Source: Patescibacteria group bacterium
GTDB lineage: Bacteria > Patescibacteriota > Microgenomatia > 2-02-FULL-39-11
Assembly (NCBI GenBank): GCA_023379265.1
Contig: JAMCUI010000020.1
Span: 1 to 59,077 of the forward strand
Length of the DNA stretch: 59,077 nucleotides
Reading direction: 5' to 3'
A program made the position numbers and the translations under genes. The notes under the pieces are model-generated. The model was not told the DNA's origin and ran no database searches. It saw only the letters and a program-made list of their open reading frames with translations. Positions 12,408-32,448 of this stretch are shown here, in pieces. Position 1 is the first letter of the stretch. Each line of letters opens with the position of its first letter.

Positions 12408-12445
12408 GTTTACCCAGTAAATTTATGATCACAAATTTAACTGGG
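12408..12445 (+). repeat. GTTTA-tagged hairpin, copy A, abutting a duplicated tRNA-Leu 3' end
   Basis: gttta-cccagtaaattt-atgatcac-aaatttaactggg, followed by tgccgcgggtgggaatctaacc (12446-12467, one mismatch to the tRNA 3' end). Confidence 0.75.
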
Positions 12446-12518
12446 TGCCGCGGGTGGGAATCTAACCGGATGCGTCTAAATCAGGCCTACCTTTGTTTTA
12501 GGTTTATATGCTTAACTG

Positions 12519-13865: not shown

Positions 13866-14048
13866 ATGACAGAAGAACAATACTACTCCATAGAAGAAGT
13901 GGCAAAGATGTTAAAAGTTGTCTATCTCACGGTTTATCGCTGGATACAGGCAAGCAAACTAAATGCTTGTAAAGCTGGCAAACAATACAGAATAAAAAAG
14001 AAAGATTTAGATGTTTTTTTAACAAACAAAAACAAAATATATGGATAA
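13866..14048 (+). CDS. Excisionase/MerR-like helix-turn-helix protein (HTH_17 type), possible R-M controller
   Basis: YSIEEVAKMLKVVYLTVYRWIQASKLNACKAGKQYRIKKKDL; overlaps the REase start. Confidence 0.85.
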   Translation: MTEEQYYSIEEVAKMLKVVYLTVYRWIQASKLNACKAGKQYRIKKKDLDVFLTNKNKIYG

Positions 14049-14856
14049 AAAAATATCATCAAGCGAAACTATTAAAGCACTTGTTAAAACAGCTGTAGAA
14101 TCTTACGCTGTTGGTTTTAAGGGAAGACATGAGGGTGAAGTAGATAATCCCGATGGAACTCTCAATATGAAAATACACAATGTTTTTATTGCTGCTTTAG
14201 GTCCAGAAATTCAATATTTTACTGCGTTAGTTCGTTCATTGGATAGCTCTCTTGGTAACATGCTCGAGAAGTTAGCAATAAGCATTGCTGAACTTTTTTA
14301 CGAGGTCGATAGAAAAGTAGAGGGCCCTTTAACCGTTAACCAAACCAGAGCTATTGCCGAATTATTAGAGAAATACAAAAGCCACGAAAGAAAACCATCA
14401 GTGGGAGATTACAAAGTCCTAAGAGAAAAACCTCAGGAAAAAATATTAGTTACAAAAAGACACGATAGTGATTACTATTTAATTGATAAGGAAACAGGAC
14501 ATCATTACTTAATTGAATTAAAAATAGGAGGAGATTTAGATAATAAAAAGGCTCGCTCGGAAAAAGAAGCAATCTTAGAGCAATTTGCTATTTTGTCTAA
14601 TACGCTAGACAAGAATACAGAAATTACTATACATTTTGCTACTGCATATAACAGATTTGGAGAAGATAAAGAATGGCAGCAAGAAAGAGTTAAACAATTC
14701 TTCGCAAAAGAGGAGCTTCTTATTGGGAGAGATTTTTGGAATTTTATTTGCAAATCTGATGAAGGCTACAATCTTGTTTTGGGAGCATATAAAGAAAATG
14801 CTTATCTTATTAAAAATGTACTTGGTGAAATTAAAAAATTATACCTAAAACAATGA
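14041..14856 (+). CDS. Type II restriction endonuclease (TdeIII-family-like, PD-(D/E)xK)
   Basis: RSLDSSLGN, D...IELK, FATAYN, LIGRDFWNFIC; coupled to a DNA MTase. Confidence 0.75.
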   Translation: MDKKISSSETIKALVKTAVESYAVGFKGRHEGEVDNPDGTLNMKIHNVFIAALGPEIQYFTALVRSLDSSLGNMLEKLAISIAELFYEVDRKVEGPLTVNQTRAIAELLEKYKSHERKPSVGDYKVLREKPQEKILVTKRHDSDYYLIDKETGHHYLIELKIGGDLDNKKARSEKEAILEQFAILSNTLDKNTEITIHFATAYNRFGEDKEWQQERVKQFFAKEELLIGRDFWNFICKSDEGYNLVLGAYKENAYLIKNVLGEIKKLYLKQ

Positions 14857-15668
14857 GCAAATATAAAATATACTTGGAAGATAGTAGAAAATTCATAAAA
14901 ACAGTCCCAGATAAATCAATAGATTTAATTTTTACAGACCCTCCTTACAACCTAAGTCCCTATTCTACCGGAAATATGAAGTTTAAATGGAGAAAGGAAA
15001 TAAATAATGATTTAGCTCATTGGGATAATATAGATTTCAATCCAAAAGAATGGATTCATGAGTTTAAGAGAATACTAAAACCCACGGGAAACATTTTTGC
15101 GTTCACAAGTTATAACTTATTAGGAAAATGGCATGAAATTTTTGATCCTGAATTTGATACTTTTCAATTCGTAGTTTGGCACAAAACCAATCCAGCTCCA
15201 AAAATAAGAAGAGCAGGTTTTTTAAATAGCTGTGAACTAATTGTTTGTGTTTGGAATAAAGGACATACATGGAATTTTGGAAAACAAAGTGAAATGCACA
15301 ATTTTGTTGAAACTCCTATATGCATGGGTAATGAAAGAGTAAAAAATCCTGTTCATCCAACCCAAAAACCACTCAAGGTACTGAGACATATAATCAAACT
15401 CGCAAGTAATAAAAATGATTTAGTTTTTGACCCATTTATGGGGGTTGGTTCTACTGGTGTTGCGGCCTTAGAACTGGAGAGAAAATTTATAGGTGTTGAT
15501 ATAGATAAAAGTTATTACAATGCGGCAGAAAAACGATTAAAGAATGCATCAAATCCTAATCTCTTTGAGGACTTATCTAACGGAAATGGAATAAAAGAAA
15601 ATGGGAAAACGAAAAGCAAACCCCAACTGATATATCAAAACGATATATTTCAAAAAGAATTTATATGA
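14853..15668 (+). CDS. Beta-class N6/N4 DNA methyltransferase (M.HinfI/CcrM-like)
   Basis: DPPY precedes FxGxG (DPFMGVGSTG); WHKTNP, PICMGNER, HPTQKP. Confidence 0.9.
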   Translation: MSKYKIYLEDSRKFIKTVPDKSIDLIFTDPPYNLSPYSTGNMKFKWRKEINNDLAHWDNIDFNPKEWIHEFKRILKPTGNIFAFTSYNLLGKWHEIFDPEFDTFQFVVWHKTNPAPKIRRAGFLNSCELIVCVWNKGHTWNFGKQSEMHNFVETPICMGNERVKNPVHPTQKPLKVLRHIIKLASNKNDLVFDPFMGVGSTGVAALELERKFIGVDIDKSYYNAAEKRLKNASNPNLFEDLSNGNGIKENGKTKSKPQLIYQNDIFQKEFI

Positions 15669-17153
15669 AAGCAGTTATTTTAACCAGAGTATCAACGCTC
15701 AAACAGGAAAAAGAAGGTCTTTCACTTAAAGATATTCAACTTCCTGAACTTGGGGATTACGCAACCAAAAGAGACTTTGAAGTGGTCAAAGAATTTGTTT
15801 TTAGCGAAAGTGCCGATTACAAGATTAGAAAAAAGTTTAACACGATGATTGATTTTGTCAAAGGGAATGAGGATATAAAAGCTATTATCTCTTACCGAGT
15901 TGACCGCATAACCAGAAACTACTGAGGCGCAGTTAAAATTGACGAGCTGAGGCTTGATTATGGCAAAGAAATTCACTTCGTTTACGACCATTTAACCATC
16001 AATAAGGACAGTGTAGTTAGGGATATACAGGACTGGGACTTAAAGGTCTTTTTAGCCAAGTAATATCTTAACCGATTAAAAGAAGGTGCAATAAATACAG
16101 TCAAATTCAAAATTAGCAGAAACGAGTGGACTGGTAAAGCCCCTTAAGGCTAAAGAAACATAACAAAAGAGGACAGCACTAAGTGGATTGAGATTGAAAA
16201 ATCTGAGGCTCAAGTAATTGAGAAAATGTATGAGTGGTATTCAACTGGCAGTTTTTCAATGCTTGAAGTGAGAAACAGACTAAAAGATGTATTTAACCTC
16301 ACTTTTTCCGAAGGTAAAATTGACTTCATCCTTAAAAATCCTTTCCCTTGTGGGACGATGATTTACGATGGGCAAGAATACCCGCATAACTACGATAGGA
16401 TAATCAGCCCAGATTTATTTGATAAAGCCCAAGAGGTCAAGGCTGGTTACAATAAAAAGCACTACAAATTCGCAGGTTTGCCCTTCCCATATAGGGGGTT
16501 GATTAGGTGTGGCGACTGCGGTTGCATCATTACCCTGGAAAGGAAAACCAAGAAAAGCGGTAAGACCTATCACTACTACCACTGCACTCAATATAACGGC
16601 AAGCACGGGGCAGAATGGCTCACAGAAGACGACCTGACCAAGCTGTTCTCAGAAGCCTTTAGTAAGCTCCAAATGCCAAAAAATGTGTTAATGACATAAC
16701 CACTACTCTCAAAAGTTCACATAAAGACAAATCAGAATTTCATAGAAATCTATTCAATAGTTATCAAGCCGAGTATAAGAAATATGAAAACAGCATTGAG
16801 AAAGCTTGGGAAGACAAAATAGACGGCAGTATTACTAGAGCTACTATGAGGAAAAACGAAAAGAGTAACGGGCAAAACAGAAGGAAATTGAAACTAAGAT
16901 GTCCAAGCTACGATTTGCCTATGAGGAATACTATATAACCTCAGAATACCTCCTAAAACTGGCTTCTAACGCAGGAAAATTGTTTGAGAGTTCTGAAGCC
17001 TACGAAAAAAAGCTACTTTTGAAGATGACACTTCAGAACTTGGAGTTGAAAGGCAAAAAAGCCCGATTTGATTGGATAAAACCGTTTGACAAGATAGCTT
17101 TTTACGCCTCTCGTCTATCTTGGCTGCGGGGCTTGGATTCGAACCAAGAATAA
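15665..17153 (+). pseudogene. Large serine recombinase, fragmented
   Basis: ILTRVSTLKQ and YRVDRITRN catalytic domain, ILKNPF recombinase domain and CxxC zinc ribbon, split by several stops and frameshifts. Confidence 0.88.
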
Positions 17154-17195
17154 ACAGCTCCAAAGGCTGCTGTCCTACCATTAGACGACCCCGCA
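17121..17195 (-). tRNA. tRNA-Gln(TTG), CCA encoded
   Basis: TGCGGGG/CCCCGCA-GCCA acceptor; anticodon arm GCAGC-CTTTGGA-GCTGT. Confidence 0.93.
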
Positions 17196-17294
17196 ATTTA
17201 TTGTCAAAATAAGTGCTATAAAGTGAACGTATATAAACTGATGTTTTACCAATGGACAACCTTGCAATTCACTTTATAAGAAATCGTGCAGTGT

Positions 17295-17329
17295 GTTTAC
17301 ACAGTAAATTTCCTCAGAAATTTACTGTG
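17295..17329 (+). repeat. GTTTA-tagged hairpin, copy B
   Basis: gttta-cacagtaaatttc-ctca-gaaatttactgtg; compensatory CAC/GTG replaces CCC/GGG; overlaps the 3' end of the outer tRNA-like scaffold. Confidence 0.8.
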
Positions 17330-17511
17330 CCGAAGGTGGGAGTTGAACCCACATCCAATTTCTTGAACCAAGTACAAAATTTTGTGTGGGCTGGAGAGGA
17401 GTTGAACCTCCACGGGTTGCCCCATACGCCCCTGAAGCGTACGCGTCTTCCAGTTCCGCCACCAGCCCAAAATTTTTACGGGGCTTCGTCTGCCAATTCC
17501 GCCACTTCGGC
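17328..17511 (-). ncRNA. Outer class-II (Leu-like) tRNA scaffold whose anticodon region is replaced by an insert containing tRNA-Leu(CAG)
   Basis: GCCGAAG/CTTCGGC-A acceptor, TGGCGGAATTGGCAGACG D-arm, CAA-GAAA-TTG variable arm, GTGGG-TTCAACT-CCCAC T-arm; inner tRNA flanked by GTAAAAATTTT / AAAATTTTGTAC. Confidence 0.75.
17387..17468 (-). tRNA. tRNA-Leu(CAG), nested
   Basis: GGGCTGG/CCAGCCC-A acceptor, TACGC-TTCAGGG-GCGTA anticodon arm, GGG-GCAA-CCC variable arm, GGAGG-TTCAACT-CCTCT T-arm. Confidence 0.9.
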
Positions 17512-17710
17512 TTTTAATAAAATTAATCAACTTTTAAGACATTACAGTCTATCTTGTATTTTCTACACTTCGGCAAAAAAAAGTTGTAAGTTGTAGTCAT
17601 ATAACTTTGGTATAGTAACTAACAACTTATAACTGTTTTGAGCGGGCGAATATACAAACCCAAATGACATTCTTTTTTTGCAAATTCCGCATTTTCAAAG
17701 ACAATTTATG

Positions 17711-17782
17711 AGCGGGCGAGGGGACTTGAACCCCTGACCTTCTCCTTGGAAGGGAGACATTCTACCGCTGAACTACGCCCGC
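17711..17782 (-). tRNA. tRNA-Gly(TCC)
   Basis: GCGGGCG/CGCCCGC-T acceptor; TCTCC-CTTCCAA-GGAGA anticodon arm. Confidence 0.93.
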
Positions 17783-17852
17783 AGTAAATGAGGCTATTTT
17801 TCCCTAGCATATCTCCCTTATAAGAATATGCTACTGATAGAAGGAGGGAAAG

Positions 17853-18092
17853 ATGGACCTCAAAACTACTTTAATTTCCTATGTTAATGACGGGATTCTC
17901 GCTGAAAAGTCACCCGCAACGCTAAAAGAATACCATTATAGTCTTAATCAGCTGTTTGAGTATATCAAATGTAAGTTTTTACCTCAAGACACATATACTT
18001 TACCACAAGAACAATCAGTGGATTTACAAACAAATTTCTATATACAGGAATCCTTTTTAACCAAATTTTTATCATTTGAAGTATCTCTATGA
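17853..18092 (+). pseudogene. Probable tyrosine-integrase N-terminal (SAM-like) remnant
   Basis: Strong RBS (aggaggg); EKSPATLKEYHYSLNQLFEYI resembles the SxxTxxxY...L..F..Y pattern; no catalytic domain; adjacent to the att/tRNA. Confidence 0.55.
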
Positions 18093-18724
18093 TAATCTGA
18101 TAATCTAATCTGTGGATAATAGACTAAAAACTTTATACCAAGAATATCTTGAGAATCAACAAATCCTGTGATTAGCGAATCAGCCGCTCCTTGCTCACGA
18201 TTATCCGGTAGAACAAAATACATTCCATCTGGTACATCTATTTCTTGACAATTTTTACCTAATACAGCGGTCTTAGGAACAATGGTTTTCTCAGGATTTA
18301 AGGTATAGGGCTCCACAAGTAATTTTCCATTAAGATGAACAAATCCTCCTTTTATCACAATTTTATCTCCATCTACTCCAATAATTCTACCAATATTAAC
18401 TTTATCTTGATTTTGATTTACTCTATAAACGATGATATCTCCTCTTTGAGGATGTTGAGTTATTTGAAAAAGTAACGGTTTAATCATATAGAAATAATCT
18501 CCCTTGTGTAAAGTTGGACTCATAGAGTCATCTACAATATTATTAGGTTGAATTACAAAAAGGTTACTTAAAATGAGTAAGCCAACAAATATTCCGATTA
18601 CCTTGAATATATCTAAGCCAAGATTTTTAATCGGAGAATTCTTTTTAACTTTTTTTAACAAAATTAAGATTAAAATTGCTAATAAAAGAAGGGAAAGGGG
18701 ATATATGAAAGCAAATATATACAT
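18038..18724 (-). CDS. Signal peptidase I-like protein (S26), catalytic Lys apparently replaced
   Basis: Two N-terminal TMs, SMSPTL..GD, RGDIIVY, IGRIIGVDGD (canonical IKRVIG), DNR....DS. Confidence 0.8.
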   Translation of the reverse strand: MYIFAFIYPLSLLLLAILILILLKKVKKNSPIKNLGLDIFKVIGIFVGLLILSNLFVIQPNNIVDDSMSPTLHKGDYFYMIKPLLFQITQHPQRGDIIVYRVNQNQDKVNIGRIIGVDGDKIVIKGGFVHLNGKLLVEPYTLNPEKTIVPKTAVLGKNCQEIDVPDGMYFVLPDNREQGAADSLITGFVDSQDILGIKFLVYYPQIRLSDYHRDTSNDKNLVKKDSCI

Positions 18725-18945
18725 ATCAACCTTTGAGTTACTTCATCATGACTACCCTGTCAATTAATATGCAAAGAATAACCGTTAGATGAGTATTAAG
18801 AATTTATCTTAGAAACTCACCTATTGGTGTTATTATAAAACTAAGTTAAATAACTTTATCATACAAAATAGTATAGAATGTCTGGAGGCTGTTTTTACGA
18901 GTCATTAAATAATTAAATATCCATACAAGGTAGAAATATACGACG

Positions 18946-19584
18946 TTATCTAATTGTTGCTTTTGGGTCACCAAAACAAACCTGGTGATTATAGTTCCAA
19001 ATCATAAGTGGAAGCATAGACAAATCTTGATCTGGATCAGTACCTGCAACTATTTGTAGTATGTTCTTTCTTATCATATTTTTAGATCTTCTATTCGCTT
19101 CTTCAGCAGTCAGACCTTTAAGAAGCCAAATAGCAACATAGTTTGAAGGTTCTAAAAATTTCTCAGCTGTTTTATCGGTTAAAGGACGGAACAGCTTCTC
19201 TAAATCAAACATAAAATAATAATCTCCGGTATAACCTATGTATGTAGTATTTACATTTTTTGAACATGATAATCCTAAACCATTAGCCGAGCTACACGAT
19301 CTGGCAAAGACAATGGTATTCTTAAAAACATTTTCATTCTCGCCCTTTTTTACCAGAACTTCATTATCATGCCCGGTAACACAATCATCATTACCATGAC
19401 CATTAATCATAATAAAAGTTGGTTGAATTTTTCTTACATAACTTGATAAATTTTTTTTGGTTACTTTTTCACCTGAAATATCAATCATTTTTACTTTTGC
19501 TTCAGCAGCGAATTGGAGGATGTGTTGAGACCACGTATAGAGATAATTTGTGGTGTTATCGTGGTAAGGACGGGTGATGATCAT
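18946..19584 (-). CDS. Putative clan CD (caspase/gingipain-like) cysteine peptidase
   Basis: Hydrophobic strand followed by NGHG (FIMINGHG), hydrophobic strand followed by SC (IVFARSCSSA), then YIGY; matches the His-Cys dyad layout. Confidence 0.6.
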   Translation of the reverse strand: MIITRPYHDNTTNYLYTWSQHILQFAAEAKVKMIDISGEKVTKKNLSSYVRKIQPTFIMINGHGNDDCVTGHDNEVLVKKGENENVFKNTIVFARSCSSANGLGLSCSKNVNTTYIGYTGDYYFMFDLEKLFRPLTDKTAEKFLEPSNYVAIWLLKGLTAEEANRRSKNMIRKNILQIVAGTDPDQDLSMLPLMIWNYNHQVCFGDPKATIR

Positions 19585-20283: not shown

Positions 20284-20320
20284 TTGGCAAGGAGACATTC
20301 TACCGCTGAACTACGCCCGC
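20284..20320 (-). repeat. att-like 5' half of tRNA-Gly, carrying a GCC anticodon
   Basis: GCGGGCGTAGTTCAGCGGTAGAATGTCTCC-TTGCCAA, then unrelated sequence. Confidence 0.85.
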
Positions 20321-24162: not shown

Positions 24163-25143
24163 TTACTTTGTAACTTTAATTAGCAGACTGTTACTGTTTT
24201 CTTCAACTGTAAGATTGAAATGTTGTGTATCTACATTCTGATTGATATTAGTTTTGATTTTCTGACACAACATTTCCCAGCTTATGTTGTGTTTCAGTAG
24301 GGGATGAGCAAGAACAATCTGAGAATAAAACTTTAACGAGGAATTAAGATACCGCATGGTTGTTCGGGGATCACGATGACCGACAATTTTAGCCACATAC
24401 ATCAGATCAACACCATTCTGACCCATTATGTCTATGTAACTGTAGCGAAAAAGATGATTCCAGATTTTTTTATTCAGTCCTATGGCTTTAGCCCTTCTTT
24501 TCAGATCAAGTAGTATCTGTTGAGAGTTTAATGTCCCGTTTCTGGCTGAACTGAAAATGTATTCTCCTTTATGGGGAAGCTGGAAAAGTAGATTAAAAAT
24601 ATCCGGTCCGATACATACAGTACGATCTTCACCATTCTTTGTGTCTCTGAAAATAACTCTTTCTGGACCACTGTGAAGGTCCTTCCAAGTCAGATTTAGC
24701 ACTTCCCCTATTCTTGCACCTGTTGTACCAAGTAGTAAAATCATAGCTTTCTGACGCTGATTGATATAACACTGAAACTTTTTGTATTGAATAATTACTT
24801 CTGCCAGTTTTTTTATATCTTCCGGGGTCAAATTATCCACCTCTGACAGTCTTTTTTCACGAAAATATGTATAATCATCAAAGTCGTGGATCTTGAAGTA
24901 TTTTCCAAGCAATTTGACAGTTTTTATAAAATTGTTGATATAGGAGATTGCATAGCCTTTATTCCGCATTTCAGCGATAAAAATGTTGAAATTATCACGG
25001 GTGAAGTCTCTAGTGGAAAAGTAGTCAAGCAGCTTGTTGAATCGGGACTTCTCGGCCATAAAAGCCGATGGTTTATCAGACAGTTTCCTGTCTACAAACA
25101 AAAAAACTTGTAGTTTCGGCCACAAAGATCTGTTCAGCAACAT
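24163..25143 (-). CDS. Tyrosine recombinase/integrase
   Basis: TGARIGE (R), TKNG (K), HLFR (HxxR), VGH...TTMRY (H, Y): catalytic set complete. Confidence 0.92.
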   Translation of the reverse strand: MLLNRSLWPKLQVFLFVDRKLSDKPSAFMAEKSRFNKLLDYFSTRDFTRDNFNIFIAEMRNKGYAISYINNFIKTVKLLGKYFKIHDFDDYTYFREKRLSEVDNLTPEDIKKLAEVIIQYKKFQCYINQRQKAMILLLGTTGARIGEVLNLTWKDLHSGPERVIFRDTKNGEDRTVCIGPDIFNLLFQLPHKGEYIFSSARNGTLNSQQILLDLKRRAKAIGLNKKIWNHLFRYSYIDIMGQNGVDLMYVAKIVGHRDPRTTMRYLNSSLKFYSQIVLAHPLLKHNISWEMLCQKIKTNINQNVDTQHFNLTVEENSNSLLIKVTK

Positions 25144-25435: not shown

Positions 25436-25611
25436 AAATAAATCTTCTTCATATCCAGTCTACTTGAGTACTGGTATTTTATCCAATAGTACAATCTGTT
25501 GCAAGAATTTTGTGGGATTGGTACAATTAACTGCACTATTTATGGCGAGGTGGTGAAATTGGAATACTCAGTTATAGCAGTCAAAATCGAGAAAAAAACA
25601 CACTAAATATT

Positions 25612-28501: not shown

Positions 28502-28586
28502 CAAAAGGTTGGTACTGCTGGTTCAAATCCGGTATGCCACCCAAAAGGTTGGTACTGCTGGTTCAAATCCGGTATGCCACCCAAAA
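28480..28586 (+). repeat. 40-bp tandem repeat of the tRNA-His T-arm and acceptor 3' end (three copies of a 27-bp core)
   Basis: ggttcaaatccggtatgccacccaaaa at 28480, 28520 and 28560, with identical 13-bp linkers. Confidence 0.9.
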
Positions 28587-32340: not shown

Positions 32341-32413
32341 GCGCTCGTAGCTTAACGGATAAAGCACTTGTCTTCGGAACAAGGGATTGGGTGTTCGAAT
32401 CACCCCGAGCGCG
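32341..32413 (+). tRNA. tRNA-Arg(TCG)
   Basis: GCGCTCG/CGAGCGC-G acceptor; CTTGT-CTTCGGA-ACAAG anticodon arm. Confidence 0.9.
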
Positions 32414-32448
32414 CCCAGTAAATTTCTGAAGAAATTTACTGGGTAAAC
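32414..32448 (-). repeat. GTTTA-tagged hairpin, copy C (left flank of the GIY-YIG gene)
   Basis: cccagtaaatttc-tgaa-gaaatttactggg-taaac: perfect 13-bp stem starting at the base after the tRNA discriminator. Confidence 0.85.

Follow-up and report, generated by a model that had tools for sequence, protein, structure and literature searches.

An intact tRNA-Leu(CAG) gene between the halves of an older one: probable in-situ replacement by small tRNA-carrying cassettes in Patescibacteria

The window, i.e., the whole stretch of 59,077 nucleotides analysed here, belongs to a Patescibacteria genome (G000) which is 93.7 % complete and whose sister species is represented by genome G001; genomes G004 and G018 stand for two other genera of the host's family. 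On the minus strand, between genes for tRNAGly and tRNAGln which are both identical in the sister species, lies an element of 184 nt composed of the two ends of a Leu-type cloverleaf bracketing an intact tRNA-Leu(CAG) (Table 1). The inner tRNA is called by ARAGORN as well as by Rfam and the outer arms are present as described in the initial annotation, with all seven pairs of the outer acceptor stem (7/7), all five of the T stem (5/5) and the discriminator A. The outer gene is devoid of an anticodon arm. In its place, an insert of ~125 bp carries a different, complete tRNA-Leu(CAG), the acceptor stem of which (GGGCTGG/CCAGCCC) differs from that of the outer gene (GCCGAAG/CTTCGGC), together with about 15–19 bp of flank per side. 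The insert contains no ORF, and only ~42 nt remain when the inner tRNA is subtracted.

Table 1. Features of the nested tRNA-Leu locus and its surroundings (positions in the window)
Feature	Position	Strand	Basis or remark
tRNA-Gly(TCC), upstream neighbour	17710..17782	(-)	ARAGORN
Direct repeat GCCGAAGTG, equal to the first 9 nt of the outer gene, upstream	17566..17574	(-)	
Outer (old) tRNA-Leu(CAG), 5' piece GCCGAAGTGGCGGAATTGGCAGACG	17487..17511	(-)	direct reading of the sequence
Contents of outer 5' piece: acceptor 5' strand GCCGAAG, U8/G9, D stem and loop GCGGAATTGGCAGACG		(-)	
Left junction: AAG and left flank CCCCGTAAAAATTTT, abutting the inner tRNA	17469..17486	(-)	probable left arm, decayed family-1 inverted repeat
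Inner intact tRNA-Leu(CAG)	17387..17468	(-)	Rfam RF00005, 46 bits, E 5.9e-8
Inner tRNA-Leu(CAG), ARAGORN limits	17468-17386	(-)	ARAGORN
Right junction: CAC and right flank AAAATTTTGTACTTGG	17368..17386	(-)	probable decayed right arm of inverted repeat
Outer (old) tRNA-Leu(CAG), 3' piece	17328..17367	(-)	direct reading and orphan T arm
Variable-arm remnant TCAAGAAATTGG	within 17328..17367	(-)	part of outer 3' piece
T arm GTGGGTTCAACTCCCAC of outer gene	17352-17336	(-)	
Acceptor 3' strand CTTCGGC of outer gene	17335-17329	(-)	
Discriminator A of outer gene	17328	(-)	
Hairpin CAGTAAATTTCTGAGGAAATTTACTG, directly after outer 3' end	17302..17327	(-)	
tRNA-Gln(TTG), downstream neighbour	17121..17195	(-)	ARAGORN

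The 9-nt direct repeat upstream of the nest, with a 54-nt insert between it and the outer 5' end, looks like the footprint of a target-site duplication. The same repeat is found upstream of the intact gene of G004, there with a 16-nt insert, and G001 retains just the distal copy, beside a T-run. Hairpins resembling the one downstream of the nest adjoin the tRNA-Arg, tRNA-Lys and tRNA-Asp genes of G000, with a match at 32413–32441 of the window. A promoter consensus scan yielded 2 promoter-like sites against 1.6 expected, none adjoining the nest; CCCGTAAAAAT may be a -10 box. In three RNA runs, a fraction of 0.05–0.06 of the sampled words was present.

The nest is covered by Logan contigs from 4 of 4 runs, all belonging to one study, which argues for a real arrangement rather than a misassembly. 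One contig (X1, 606 nt, positions 17160–17765) shows no difference, its run possibly being the source sample itself. Two others (X2, 694 nt; X3, 977 nt) span the nest with 6–7 differences, and a fourth (X4, 428 nt) covers positions 17086–17513.

Uninterrupted tRNA-Leu(CAG) genes of the GCCGAAG type are present in G004 (L024, 1453–1537) and G018 (L027, 1516–1598). The outer 5' piece matches the intact gene of G004 in 26 of 26 nt (E 9.7e-7) and the outer 3' piece matches it with 89 % identity over 45 nt (E 2.9e-10); downstream of the latter, the flank CACA(G/A)TAAAT is common to G000 and G004. The outer pieces are, therefore, homologous to real genes and not chance look-alikes. The inner gene shares 85–89 % identity with the tRNA-Leu(CAG) genes standing alone in G011, G016, G015 and G010.

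Group I introns of bacterial tRNA genes and archaeal bulge-helix-bulge introns are located in or near the anticodon loop, and the intervening sequence of the nest occupies a like position. Reading the locus as an intron-containing tRNA gene (of group I/II or bulge-helix-bulge type), the intron of which holds a tRNA, would accommodate this position as well as flanks that can pair. Unlike tRNA introns, however, the nests have no ribozyme core or splicing enzymes and leave no functional tRNA after removal. ARAGORN, with introns of 0–3000 nt allowed, called the inner tRNA only and not the outer gene, and an Rfam cmscan (E<=1) of positions 16000–19000 matched no intron family, its hits being three tRNAs, a 17-nt match to a tmRNA T arm and a chance plastid hit. 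Excision of the insert rebuilds no anticodon stem-loop, as already stated in the initial annotation, which had likewise seen no room for a group I/II intron core. Neither the tRNA splicing endonuclease EndA (PF01974) nor the RtcB ligase (PF01139) had any match in the 93.7 % complete genome, while the two controls responded in 4 and 10 of 14 reference genomes, respectively. Taken together, an intron is extremely improbable. Mimicry of tmRNA was rejected as well: the third acceptor pair is C:G and the tmRNA model reaches only 14.8 bits, via the T arm alone, against a threshold of 47 bits. The proposal that the outer gene is a missing tRNA-Leu(CAA) was also discarded. Absence of tRNA-Leu(CAA) holds for the window but not for the genome, where this gene is present on C4 (59361–59446) and all five Leu isoacceptors are found without counting the outer gene.

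The tRNA-Leu(CAA) on C4 is itself nested, lying inside a dead Leu(CAA) gene and bracketed by GCCGAGGTGGCGGAATTGGCA and TCAAAAACCTG...CCTCGGCA. The outer gene of this nest is intact in G001, G018 and G006, and the upstream DNA is ~97 % identical between G000 and G001; in G000, 13 nt, the tRNA and 14 nt stand in place of 12 nt. On C6 of G000, a tRNA-Trp of type B resides inside a dead type-A gene; G001 retains the type-A gene uninterrupted, and the upstream DNA of the two genomes is 99 % identical. The reciprocal arrangement, type A inside a dead type B, occurs in G011, bounded by the same repeat (TCCCGTAAAGAT/ATCTTTACGGGA) and with the same junctions as in G000, so neither Trp allele can be considered the "better" one. 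The identity of both junctions and deletion in these reciprocal nests is not explained by simple independent insertion. A three-deep nest is found in G004 (C5), with an intact tRNA-Pro(CGG) inside a dead tRNA-Pro (Pro-2) inside another dead one (Pro-1). In G200, a member of another family of the class, a tRNA-Asp located between the same family-1 repeats is followed by the 3' piece of an old Asp gene starting at the anticodon, and in the metagenome contig L088 an older Leu(CAG) gene is interrupted at its D loop by a tRNA-Leu(CAG). Overall, at least 9 separate nests were detected in 6 genomes of one family, in addition to G200 and L088, all of them at the cognate gene. The inserts comprise ~100–200 bp without any protein-coding remnant (window, C4, C6, G001, G011, G004 Trp, G004 Pro and L088), inverted repeats are situated 0–22 nt from the tRNA, and the junctions cluster in tRNA loops. 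A whole-genome scan for nests and fragments, performed for the window's own genome, revealed many tRNA end fragments adjoining their genes. The same nesting that the initial annotation had proposed to look for in relatives thus exists at further loci and in further genomes, with outer parts ranging from nearly whole to almost gone, and its first reading, disruption of a tRNA gene by a hairpin element that carries a tRNA, is the one supported by the uninterrupted orthologues in G004 and G018 and by the recurrence of nests, several of which have clear terminal inverted repeats.

The outer parts form a decay series, from whole halves (G000) via a single acceptor mismatch (G004 Trp) and at least 2 mismatches plus a scrambled 5' piece (G017) to 8 nt remaining (G013), loss of the 5' piece (G200) and almost nothing left (Leu(CAG) locus of G011). 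Comparison of G000 with G001 at the window locus shows 100 % conservation of the outer pieces and unalignable spacers, the latter reflecting separate insertions and not accumulated point changes. The perfect acceptor and T arm, the Leu-type D loop and this conservation could speak for a functional outer cloverleaf, serving as tRNA-like scaffold in the processing or stabilization of the inner tRNA, or as second RNA, its halves held or ligated together, that is perhaps charged by LeuRS and used outside translation; bacterial LeuRS does not read the anticodon. The strain variants (X2–X4) point in the same direction, with 0 substitutions in the 63 nt that make up the D, T and acceptor pieces of the outer gene compared to 6 in ~368 nt of other non-tRNA sequence, albeit ~1 substitution would be expected in 63 nt and the difference is not significant. 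Such a function is nevertheless very improbable. The outer gene has no anticodon arm, the outer part in G001 is without the 3' strand of the D stem, the variable arm and two pairs of the T stem and has acquired an insert of ~32 nt after the acceptor strand, and the outer Trp gene of G000 lacks half its T arm, with 2 changes in the 18 nt of its 3' piece beside 99 % identical flanks. Furthermore, the reciprocal Trp nests imply that the outer role falls to whichever gene was resident. Since G000 and G001 share 97–99 % of flanking identity at two other loci (C4 and C6), flawless preservation of the outer pieces is no sign of constraint; purifying selection was accordingly rejected and the conservation is attributed to low divergence. 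Judged from two genomes, weak selection on the outer pieces may exist. Of the alternatives offered in the initial annotation, a processing scaffold or two-RNA precursor is not supported, given the missing anticodon arm, the silence of the intron searches, the lack of EndA and RtcB matches and the decay of the outer parts; recent origin fits, and the selection named alongside it is not needed.

Inverted repeats, for instance CCCGTAAA(A/G)AT...AT(C/T)TTTACGGG (family 1), enclose several of the inserts, and the window possesses a probable decayed copy of this repeat. Its left-flank motif recurs in the Trp cassettes of G000 and G011 (TCCCGTAAAGAT), the Pro cassette of G004 (CCCCGTAAAAAATTT) and the Asp cassette of G200 (CCCCGTAAAATTT), and the right flank is comparable to AAATTTTTACGGGG in the latter two, to which the variant at position 17370 (T>G, minus strand) in X2–X4 is nearer by one base. 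One repeat sequence, hence, bounds cassettes with Trp, Pro and Asp cargo and, in a decayed state, also the Leu cassette, i.e., four cargoes. A further family of repeats (CCGCCTGC.../...GCGGGCAGG) bounds the Trp cassettes of G004 and G017 and was found without cargo, too, forming a 34-nt hairpin within a dead Leu(GAG) fragment. Pairing of the flanks surpassed that of shuffled sequences in 5 of 12 nests (0–1 of 300 shuffles as good), was borderline for G017 (18/300) and G200 (13/300) and did not differ from chance on C4 (37/300) and in G001 (140/300), G013 (62/300) and the Leu-CAA nest of G004 (182/300). The same applies to the window: the long imperfect stem described in the initial annotation exists, but at -8.0 kcal/mol it is no better than chance, 124 of 300 shuffles being as good. 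With 5 of 12 nests indistinguishable from their shuffled flanks in this respect, inverted repeats are not a feature of all nests. The fold of the whole element has a z-score of -2.6, to which the intact inner tRNA contributes.

Across 21 family genomes, the family-1 11-mer CCCGTAAARAT proved not to be multicopy (69 occurrences versus 53 control hits), was present as inverted pair around the Trp genes of G000 and G011 only, and formed no inverted pair at gene-sized distance; a gene-bearing (autonomous) element with these repeats was not found. The class-wide scan for the repeat pattern matched 9 of 401 genomes (control: 4 genomes), 4 of these 9 holding a tRNA; three further matches at 2 mismatches (G016, G005 and G002) are not trusted. 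In viral contigs, the family-1 pattern had 0 matches and the family-2 pattern 118, none of the latter (0/118) with a tRNA, and phages as carriers of the cassettes were consequently rejected, as viral contigs contained no cassette. Genes for Y1 transposases (Y1_Tnp) are present in 16 of 21 family genomes, one of them ~360 bp from the Trp nest of G013. They are flanked by inverted repeats of their own, differing from those of the nests, and were not detected in G000 and G011. Target-site duplications are absent from the nest junctions, where target sequence was deleted instead.

Homology of the outer pieces, states before and after insertion, recurrence, layering and the decay series are direct observations. 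On their basis, the 184-nt element most probably represents two generations of one gene, arisen by recurrent in-situ replacement through small tRNA-carrying cassettes. In the window, the anticodon arm of an older tRNA-Leu(CAG) would have been replaced by an insert carrying a different tRNA-Leu(CAG), the inner gene of which would supply the essential function. The outer halves would then constitute a pseudogene providing leader and trailer of the transcript of the inner tRNA, and RNase P together with 3' processing enzymes is presumed to free the inner tRNA only. Cassettes consisting of nothing but a tRNA would land mostly in or next to the D, anticodon and T loops of the gene already serving the same anticodon, destroying and at the same time replacing it, and could not be lost once in place. 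Because these genomes possess one gene per anticodon, only cognate hits could survive.

How the replacement came about can be read in different ways. The nest could be the remnant of a larger element (prophage, island or plasmid) that, in the manner of tRNA-dependent lysogeny, integrated into tRNA-Leu(CAG) without restoring it and brought a tRNA-Leu(CAG) of its own, all else being deleted later, a reading that concerns the mechanism only and leaves the outer gene dead. Integrative elements are active in the vicinity of tRNA genes: beside tRNA-Gln, the window harbours a large serine recombinase in split form together with a restriction-modification pair (14041–16699), and of the four tyrosine integrases encoded by the genome, two (at C7:18616 and at 24337 of the window) are no more than ~2 kb away from tRNA genes. 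The frequent end fragments adjoining tRNA genes would be in line with such integrations. In contigs L155, L101 and L045, moreover, a gene for a LAGLIDADG endonuclease separates a complete tRNA-Leu from an orphan 3' piece; a homing-endonuclease cassette was rejected for G000, where no LAGLIDADG_3 was found, although contigs of the L155 type have one elsewhere. The principle is established, as described for mycobacteriophages (PMC10865867) and an archaeal recombinase element of 1.8 kb (PMC3293823). Against this stand the small size of the inserts, their lack of protein-coding remnants and the repeats placed so close to the tRNA. In addition, the events on C4 and C6 are younger than the split of G000 and G001, yet already minimal, and it is improbable that deletions should have stopped right beside the tRNA so many times. 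The nearest recombinase pieces (15665–15925 and 16226–16699) are located outside the nest, beyond tRNA-Gln. A larger element is therefore regarded as unlikely.

Alternatively, no mobile element would be involved at all: imported DNA of a related strain, bearing a diverged tRNA-Leu(CAG) gene, could have been patched into a broken resident gene by illegitimate or microhomology-mediated repair, with selection retaining those products that yield a working tRNA. Consistent with this, the inner genes are ordinary alleles which stand alone in other genera (besides the four Leu(CAG) genes mentioned above, Trp type B in G019 and G007), the left flank accompanies the Leu(CAG) gene also in G011 and G008, and several nests are devoid of significant inverted repeats. 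The nests, all cognate, are too many and too well aimed for such accidents, and repair explains neither one repeat sequence around four cargoes nor the clustering of junctions in tRNA loops; it is given only a small probability.

Returning to replacement by cassettes, the junctions clustered in loops and the inserts closed by stems suggest a reaction taking place on single-stranded nucleic acid in folded form. The proposal that it is the cassette itself that moves is credible, if tentative. Slightly more tentatively, the cassettes could constitute an undescribed class of selfish elements: a tRNA gene of ~100–200 bp, closed by a short stem and without any protein gene, which hits exposed loops of the cognate gene, destroys it, borrows its promoter and becomes irreplaceable. 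If so, successive waves would generate tRNA genes of two or three layers in the manner of "Russian dolls" and a rapid horizontal turnover of tRNA alleles in bacteria with such small genomes, amounting to addiction by gene replacement. Movement via folded single-stranded DNA and a hairpin-recognizing enzyme, such as Y1 transposases of the IS200/RAYT type, is a more doubtful assumption. REP/REPIN elements are short hairpin-forming inverted repeats mobilized by RAYT (Y1 HUH) transposases; REPINs are multicopy, free of genes and tied to their cognate RAYT. The 5 of 12 nests with clear inverted repeats resemble them in these short hairpin-forming structures, and Y1-transposase genes with own inverted repeats are frequent within the host's family. 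In contrast to REPINs, however, the repeats of the nests are not multicopy, the nests carry a tRNA as cargo and a cognate transposase was not found, and the RAYT/REPIN model was for the reasons of copy number and transposase retained only as a low-confidence mechanism. From MITEs, the nests differ by the missing target-site duplication at the junctions.

A tRNA gene nested in its own predecessor was not found described in the literature, as far as covered chiefly by open-access main texts. The closest known parallel is the tRNA-dependent lysogeny of mycobacteriophages, for which insertion into an essential host tRNA gene without rebuilding it has been described (Guerrero-Bustamante & Hatfull, mBio 2024, PMC10865867). 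In both cases, the host tRNA gene is disrupted and not reconstructed at the junctions, and here the inner gene as well as the intact orthologues of the outer gene are tRNA-Leu(CAG). The lysogeny system as described involves a whole prophage with tyrosine integrase, an attP/attB core of ~10 bp and a tRNA inside (PMC10865867), whereas the nests measure ~100–200 bp, have no integrase between the halves, feature inverted repeats in some cases, attain up to three layers and occur in an uncultured bacterium with a small genome. Fragments of tRNA genes left behind by integrating elements have been reported (van der Gulik et al., RNA Biol 2023, PMC9897764), as has, for Caldiarchaeum, a newer tRNA-Thr with the 5' fragment of an older one lying upstream (Sugahara et al., PLoS One 2012, PMC3293823). 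These share with the nests the partial genes beside complete ones as scars of integration, but in the cases described an element of kilobase scale encoding a recombinase lies between fragment and gene and usually one fragment exists (PMC9897764, PMC3293823); in the nests, the new gene is closely bracketed by both old halves. The Dada DNA transposons of fish insert specifically into tRNA genes, chiefly at positions around the anticodon and the D-arm (A box) (Kojima, Biology 2022, PMC8869645), the two regions also hit in the nests. According to the same account, these are eukaryotic elements that encode a transposase and avoid harm by multicopy targets, in contrast to the single-copy target of the nests, where the insert carries the replacement.

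Replacement of this kind would provide a concrete and recurrent route for the exchange of essential single-copy tRNA genes between lineages, the newcomer landing in the very gene that it replaces, and may explain why closely related species have very different acceptor stems for the same anticodon. Were the cassettes mobile, they would rank among the smallest addictive elements known and the "disrupt and complement" logic, known from whole phages, would apply to a bare RNA gene as well. For genome annotation, the nests are relevant inasmuch as tRNA finders report the inner gene alone, and outer halves and tRNA end fragments may easily be taken for introns, for split tRNAs or for novel RNAs.

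The 3' pattern of the outer gene corresponds to a common tRNA-Leu 3' end occurring across many phyla. In a collection scan, 223 of the 239 matches listed end an ordinary tRNA-Leu; of the remaining 16, a contig end truncates 6, and masked bases affect 1. A related arrangement is present in the public contig L163, which is labelled Candidatus Gottesmanbacteria.

The nested architecture described for the minus strand in the initial annotation was accurate according to sequence reading, ARAGORN and Rfam. An intact inner tRNA gene lies within the halves of a dead, older cognate tRNA gene, an arrangement termed nest in the following. The enclosing stem is present as described, but is AT-rich, and its predicted energy was equalled by 124 of 300 shuffled flank pairs. 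Likewise, tRNA-Leu(CAA) is indeed absent from the window, but its gene is located on contig C4 of the same genome (G000); thus, the full Leu isoacceptor set is independent of the outer gene. Overall, ARAGORN identified 46 tRNA genes in G000, covering all five Leu isoacceptors without counting the outer gene, and no tmRNA in its 20 contigs (93.7 % complete).

Locations of the nests, tRNA-fragment arrays and neighbouring genes in the window and on other contigs (C) of G000
Feature	Location	Strand	Basis or remark
Outer acceptor 5' strand and Leu-type D arm, GCCGAAG-TG-GCGGAATTGGCAGACG	Window, starts at 17511	-	Read from sequence
AAG + CCCCGTAAAAATTTT	Window, between outer D arm and inner tRNA	-	Read from sequence
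Inner complete tRNA-Leu(CAG)	Window, 17468-17386; 17468-17387	-	ARAGORN; Rfam tRNA, 46 bits
CAC-AAAATTTT-G-TAC-TTGG	Window, directly 3' of inner tRNA	-	Read from sequence
Outer variable-arm remnant TCAAGAAATTGG	Window, between TTGG and T arm	-	Read from sequence
Outer T arm GTGGG-TTCAACT-CCCAC, perfect	Window, 17352-17336	-	Read from sequence
CTTCGGC + discriminator A	Window, 3' end of element, to 17328	-	Read from sequence
Second nest, tRNA-Leu(CAA) inside dead Leu(CAA)	C4:59327-59512; inner gene 59361-59446
Third nest, tRNA-Trp type B inside dead type A	C6:30790-30975
TdeIII-type restriction endonuclease, N6/N4 DNA methylase, large serine recombinase	Window, 14041-16699	+	Adjoin tRNA-Gln
Serine recombinase, split into two ORFs	Window, 15665-15925 (Resolvase N-terminal domain); 16226-16699 (Recombinase + zinc ribbon)	+
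Tyrosine integrase	Window, 24337-24831	-	PF00589, 90.8 bits; ~0.5 kb from tRNA-Val(TAC) and Leu(GAG)/Arg/Gly tRNA cluster
Tandem tRNA-end-fragment arrays, perfect	Window, 28517-28582; C7:16548-16859; C19:37895-38119; C11:54898-54968; C10:141-384		Beside their genes

The nest is not an assembly artefact, because Logan per-run contigs cover it in all four sequencing runs examined (X1-X4, a single mine-tailings study). A 606-nt contig of X1, which may be the source sample, matches 17160-17765 with 0 differences. In X2 and X3, a strain variant is present that shows 6-7 differences and, upstream, an indel of 14 nt; the 428-nt contig of X4 ends at 17513. The remaining apparent joints in the contig mapping correspond to normal tRNA-Leu genes that have the same ends and belong to other members of the community.

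Uninterrupted tRNA-Leu(CAG) genes, the 5' 26 nt of which are identical to the outer 5' piece, were detected in two genomes of the family (G004, G018); over its 3' 45 nt, this gene type shares 89 % identity with the outer 3' piece, and the first downstream bases match as well. By this match, the outer cloverleaf is identified from sequence comparison as the orthologue of the normal tRNA-Leu(CAG), with the anticodon arm lost to the insertion. The inner allele (acceptor GGGCTGG) is a stand-alone gene in G011, G015, G010, G016 and G008, its left flank resembling that of the window in G011 (...CCCGTACAATTTT) and G008 (...CATAAAAATTTT). Where the outer gene begins (5' end), a 54-nt insert is enclosed by a 9-bp direct repeat (GCCGAAGTG; window 17566-17574 and 17503-17511, minus strand), and the same 9-mer repeat occurs with a 16-nt insert upstream of the intact gene in G004; judged from sequence, the pair looks like a transposon footprint with 9-bp target duplication.

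In the sister species (G001), the gene order Gly(TCC)-Leu(CAG)-Gln(TTG) is shared and Leu(CAG) is likewise nested, with another inner allele (GCAGGTG), other flanks and, behind the outer acceptor strand, an insert of ~32 nt; of the outer gene, the D-stem 3' strand, the variable arm and some of the T stem are lost. A hairpin (CTCAGG...CCCTGAG) carries the inner Leu(CAG) of G001 in its loop; in G016, this hairpin is empty. The right arm of this hairpin belongs to a repeated motif (6 versus 0 control matches in G000, 13 versus 1 in G011), and one copy of the motif, GGTTTACCCTGAG ... GCGAAGGG, encloses the inner tRNA of G001. Further copies are located at C19:318, C4:98358, C9:29673 and C10:52469 of G000 and in relatives; the motif resembles a REP-like hairpin family.

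Two further nests in G000 were found by searching the tRNA-masked genome with the 46 tRNAs (blastn-short) and by scanning for orphan T arms and for flank complementarity. The C4 nest has a 5' piece (GCCGAGGTGGCGGAATTGGCA), and its 3' piece extends from the anticodon loop (TCAAAAACCTG...) up to CCTCGGCA; the outer gene of this nest is intact in G001, G018 and G006, and in G000 12 nt of it were exchanged for 13 nt + tRNA + 14 nt. In G004, the allele that is inner at C4 forms the outer 5' fragment around a third allele. In the C6 nest, the 5' piece reaches the anticodon loop (CTCCAA), the 3' piece begins in the T loop and differs at 2 of 18 positions, and the insert ends form a perfect 12-bp inverted repeat (TCCCGTAAAGAT...ATCTTTACGGGA). 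This outer Trp is unable to fold as a tRNA; type A is intact in G001, where the upstream DNA is 99 % identical.

In G011, the C6 nest has its reciprocal: dead type B surrounds type A, and repeats and junctions are the same. In G004 and G017, the anticodon of dead type B is the clean insertion site of another Trp allele, which is flanked by a second repeat family (CCGCCTGC.../...GCGGGCAGG). A dead Leu(GAG) fragment of G004 contains an empty version of this family, a hairpin of 34 nt, and in metagenome contig L088 the form CCCCGCA...TGCGGGG encloses the inner Leu(CAG). Three layers were observed in G004:C5 (L311, 1-520, minus strand): an intact tRNA-Pro(CGG), bounded by CCCCGTAAAAAATTT...AAATTTTTACGGG, in dead Pro-2 in dead Pro-1, with extra hairpins between the layers. 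Beyond the family, in G200 (same class), the same repeats bound a tRNA-Asp, behind which lies the 3' piece of an old Asp gene, beginning at the anticodon. In the window, the sequences on either side of the inner gene (CCCCGTAAAAATTTT, AAAATTTTGTACTTGG) look like a decayed version of these Pro/Asp cassette repeats, and the variant at 17370 in X2-X4 is one base nearer to them.

The nests show that a complete foreign allele with the same anticodon and short flanks takes the place of an internal segment of the resident gene, and this replacement is repeated, recent, in both directions between alleles, and in layers. Intact orthologues and recurrent nests support one of the readings proposed in the initial annotation, that a tRNA gene was disrupted by a tRNA-carrying element, which is probable for the outer gene.

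Two functional RNAs, or an outer part serving as scaffold, had also been considered there. The three outer pieces are identical between G000 and G001 and the spacers unalignable; purifying selection on the pieces need not be assumed given the 97-99 % identity of non-coding flanks at two other loci, which reflects low point divergence, so that the unalignable spacers represent separate insertions. The X2-X4 variant has 6 substitutions in ~368 nt of non-tRNA sequence, two of them (17366, 17370) within the remnant stem, versus 0 in 63 nt of outer D/T/acceptor pieces, where with ~1 expected this is uninformative on constraint. Across relatives, the outer parts decay randomly, from complete halves in G000 via one acceptor mismatch in the G004 Trp nest and at least two mismatches plus a scrambled 5' piece in G017 to 8 nt in G013 and loss of the 5' piece in G200; at the Leu(CAG) locus of G011, only upstream ...GACG-CCCGTA... 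and downstream ...TTCGG-TGTAAACACAC recall the window arrangement. Random decay in relatives had been named in the initial annotation as counting against a functional outer RNA. With introns allowed, ARAGORN called only the inner tRNA and no spliced outer tRNA, Rfam (E<=1) revealed no intron family at the locus, and neither PF01974 nor PF01139 had a match in G000, which is 93.7 % complete. Given this decay and the lack of a splicing route, a functional outer RNA, be it scaffold or second product, is very improbable, and disruption remains the preferred reading.

Most nest junctions map to the D, anticodon or T loops or to positions next to them; no target-site duplication was detected at nests, and the stretch between two loops is often lost. 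Only cognate insertions would survive, because there is one gene per anticodon, and the insert would be transcribed from the promoter of the old gene; at C4, TTGACT...TATAAT is conserved upstream of the outer gene in G000, G001, G018, G006 and G004. Tentatively, the stem-closed cassette itself may be the mobile unit. Its movement as folded single-stranded DNA via a Y1 (IS200/RAYT-like) transposase is rather unlikely. Y1 transposase genes occur in 16 of 21 family genomes, each with its own flanking inverted repeat, and the Trp nest of G013 has one of them at a distance of ~360 bp. Several observations count against a transposase: the family-1 repeat is no multicopy element (69 versus 53 control matches), no transposase gene bounded by this repeat was found, Y1_Tnp was not detected in G000 or G011, and a clear flank repeat is missing in 7 of 12 nests (five no better than shuffled flanks, two borderline: G017, 18/300; G200, 13/300). 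The identical junctions of the reciprocal Trp nests (G000, G011) are left unaccounted for by the proposed mechanism.

In tRNA-dependent lysogeny (PMC10865867), an essential tRNA gene is disrupted, a same-isotype copy is carried and the element becomes indispensable; nests share this logic of disruption and complementation. Fragments of tRNAs are well-known integration scars (PMC9897764), and in an archaeal population a new tRNA-Thr occurs together with a 1.8-kb recombinase element and the 5' fragment of an old gene (PMC3293823). In contrast to these systems, nests consist of a bare tRNA gene of 100-200 bp without protein gene, both halves of the old gene tightly bracket the insert, the ends are stem-closed, and alleles are nested reciprocally and in multiple layers. 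No description of such nesting was found in the literature searched, the searchable coverage of which is limited. Recurrence and layering constitute the main interest for tRNA and mobile-element specialists.

The restriction-modification and recombinase genes adjoining tRNA-Gln look like a decayed integrated element. The tandem arrays consist of 3' ends of tRNA-His (two units, 40-nt period), tRNA-Met (eight, 39-nt), tRNA-Ala(GGC) (six, 38-nt) and tRNA-Thr(CGU) (two), or of 5' ends of tRNA-Thr(GGU) (six), with unit borders at stem junctions. Three orphan pieces lie in the window: the 3' end of tRNA-Leu(TAA), downstream of its own gene (12445-12467), the isolated 5' half (37 nt) of a tRNA-Gly that belongs to no adjoining gene (20284-20320), and a tRNA-Leu(GAG) 5' fragment that precedes the corresponding gene by 45 nt (25544-25567). 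Additionally, three Patescibacteria-labelled and metagenome contigs (L155, L101, L045) contain, in this order, a complete tRNA-Leu, a gene for a 201-aa LAGLIDADG_3 endonuclease and an orphan older tRNA-Leu 3' piece (variable arm, T arm, acceptor), an arrangement representing a homing-endonuclease cassette by which a substitute 3' part is supplied.
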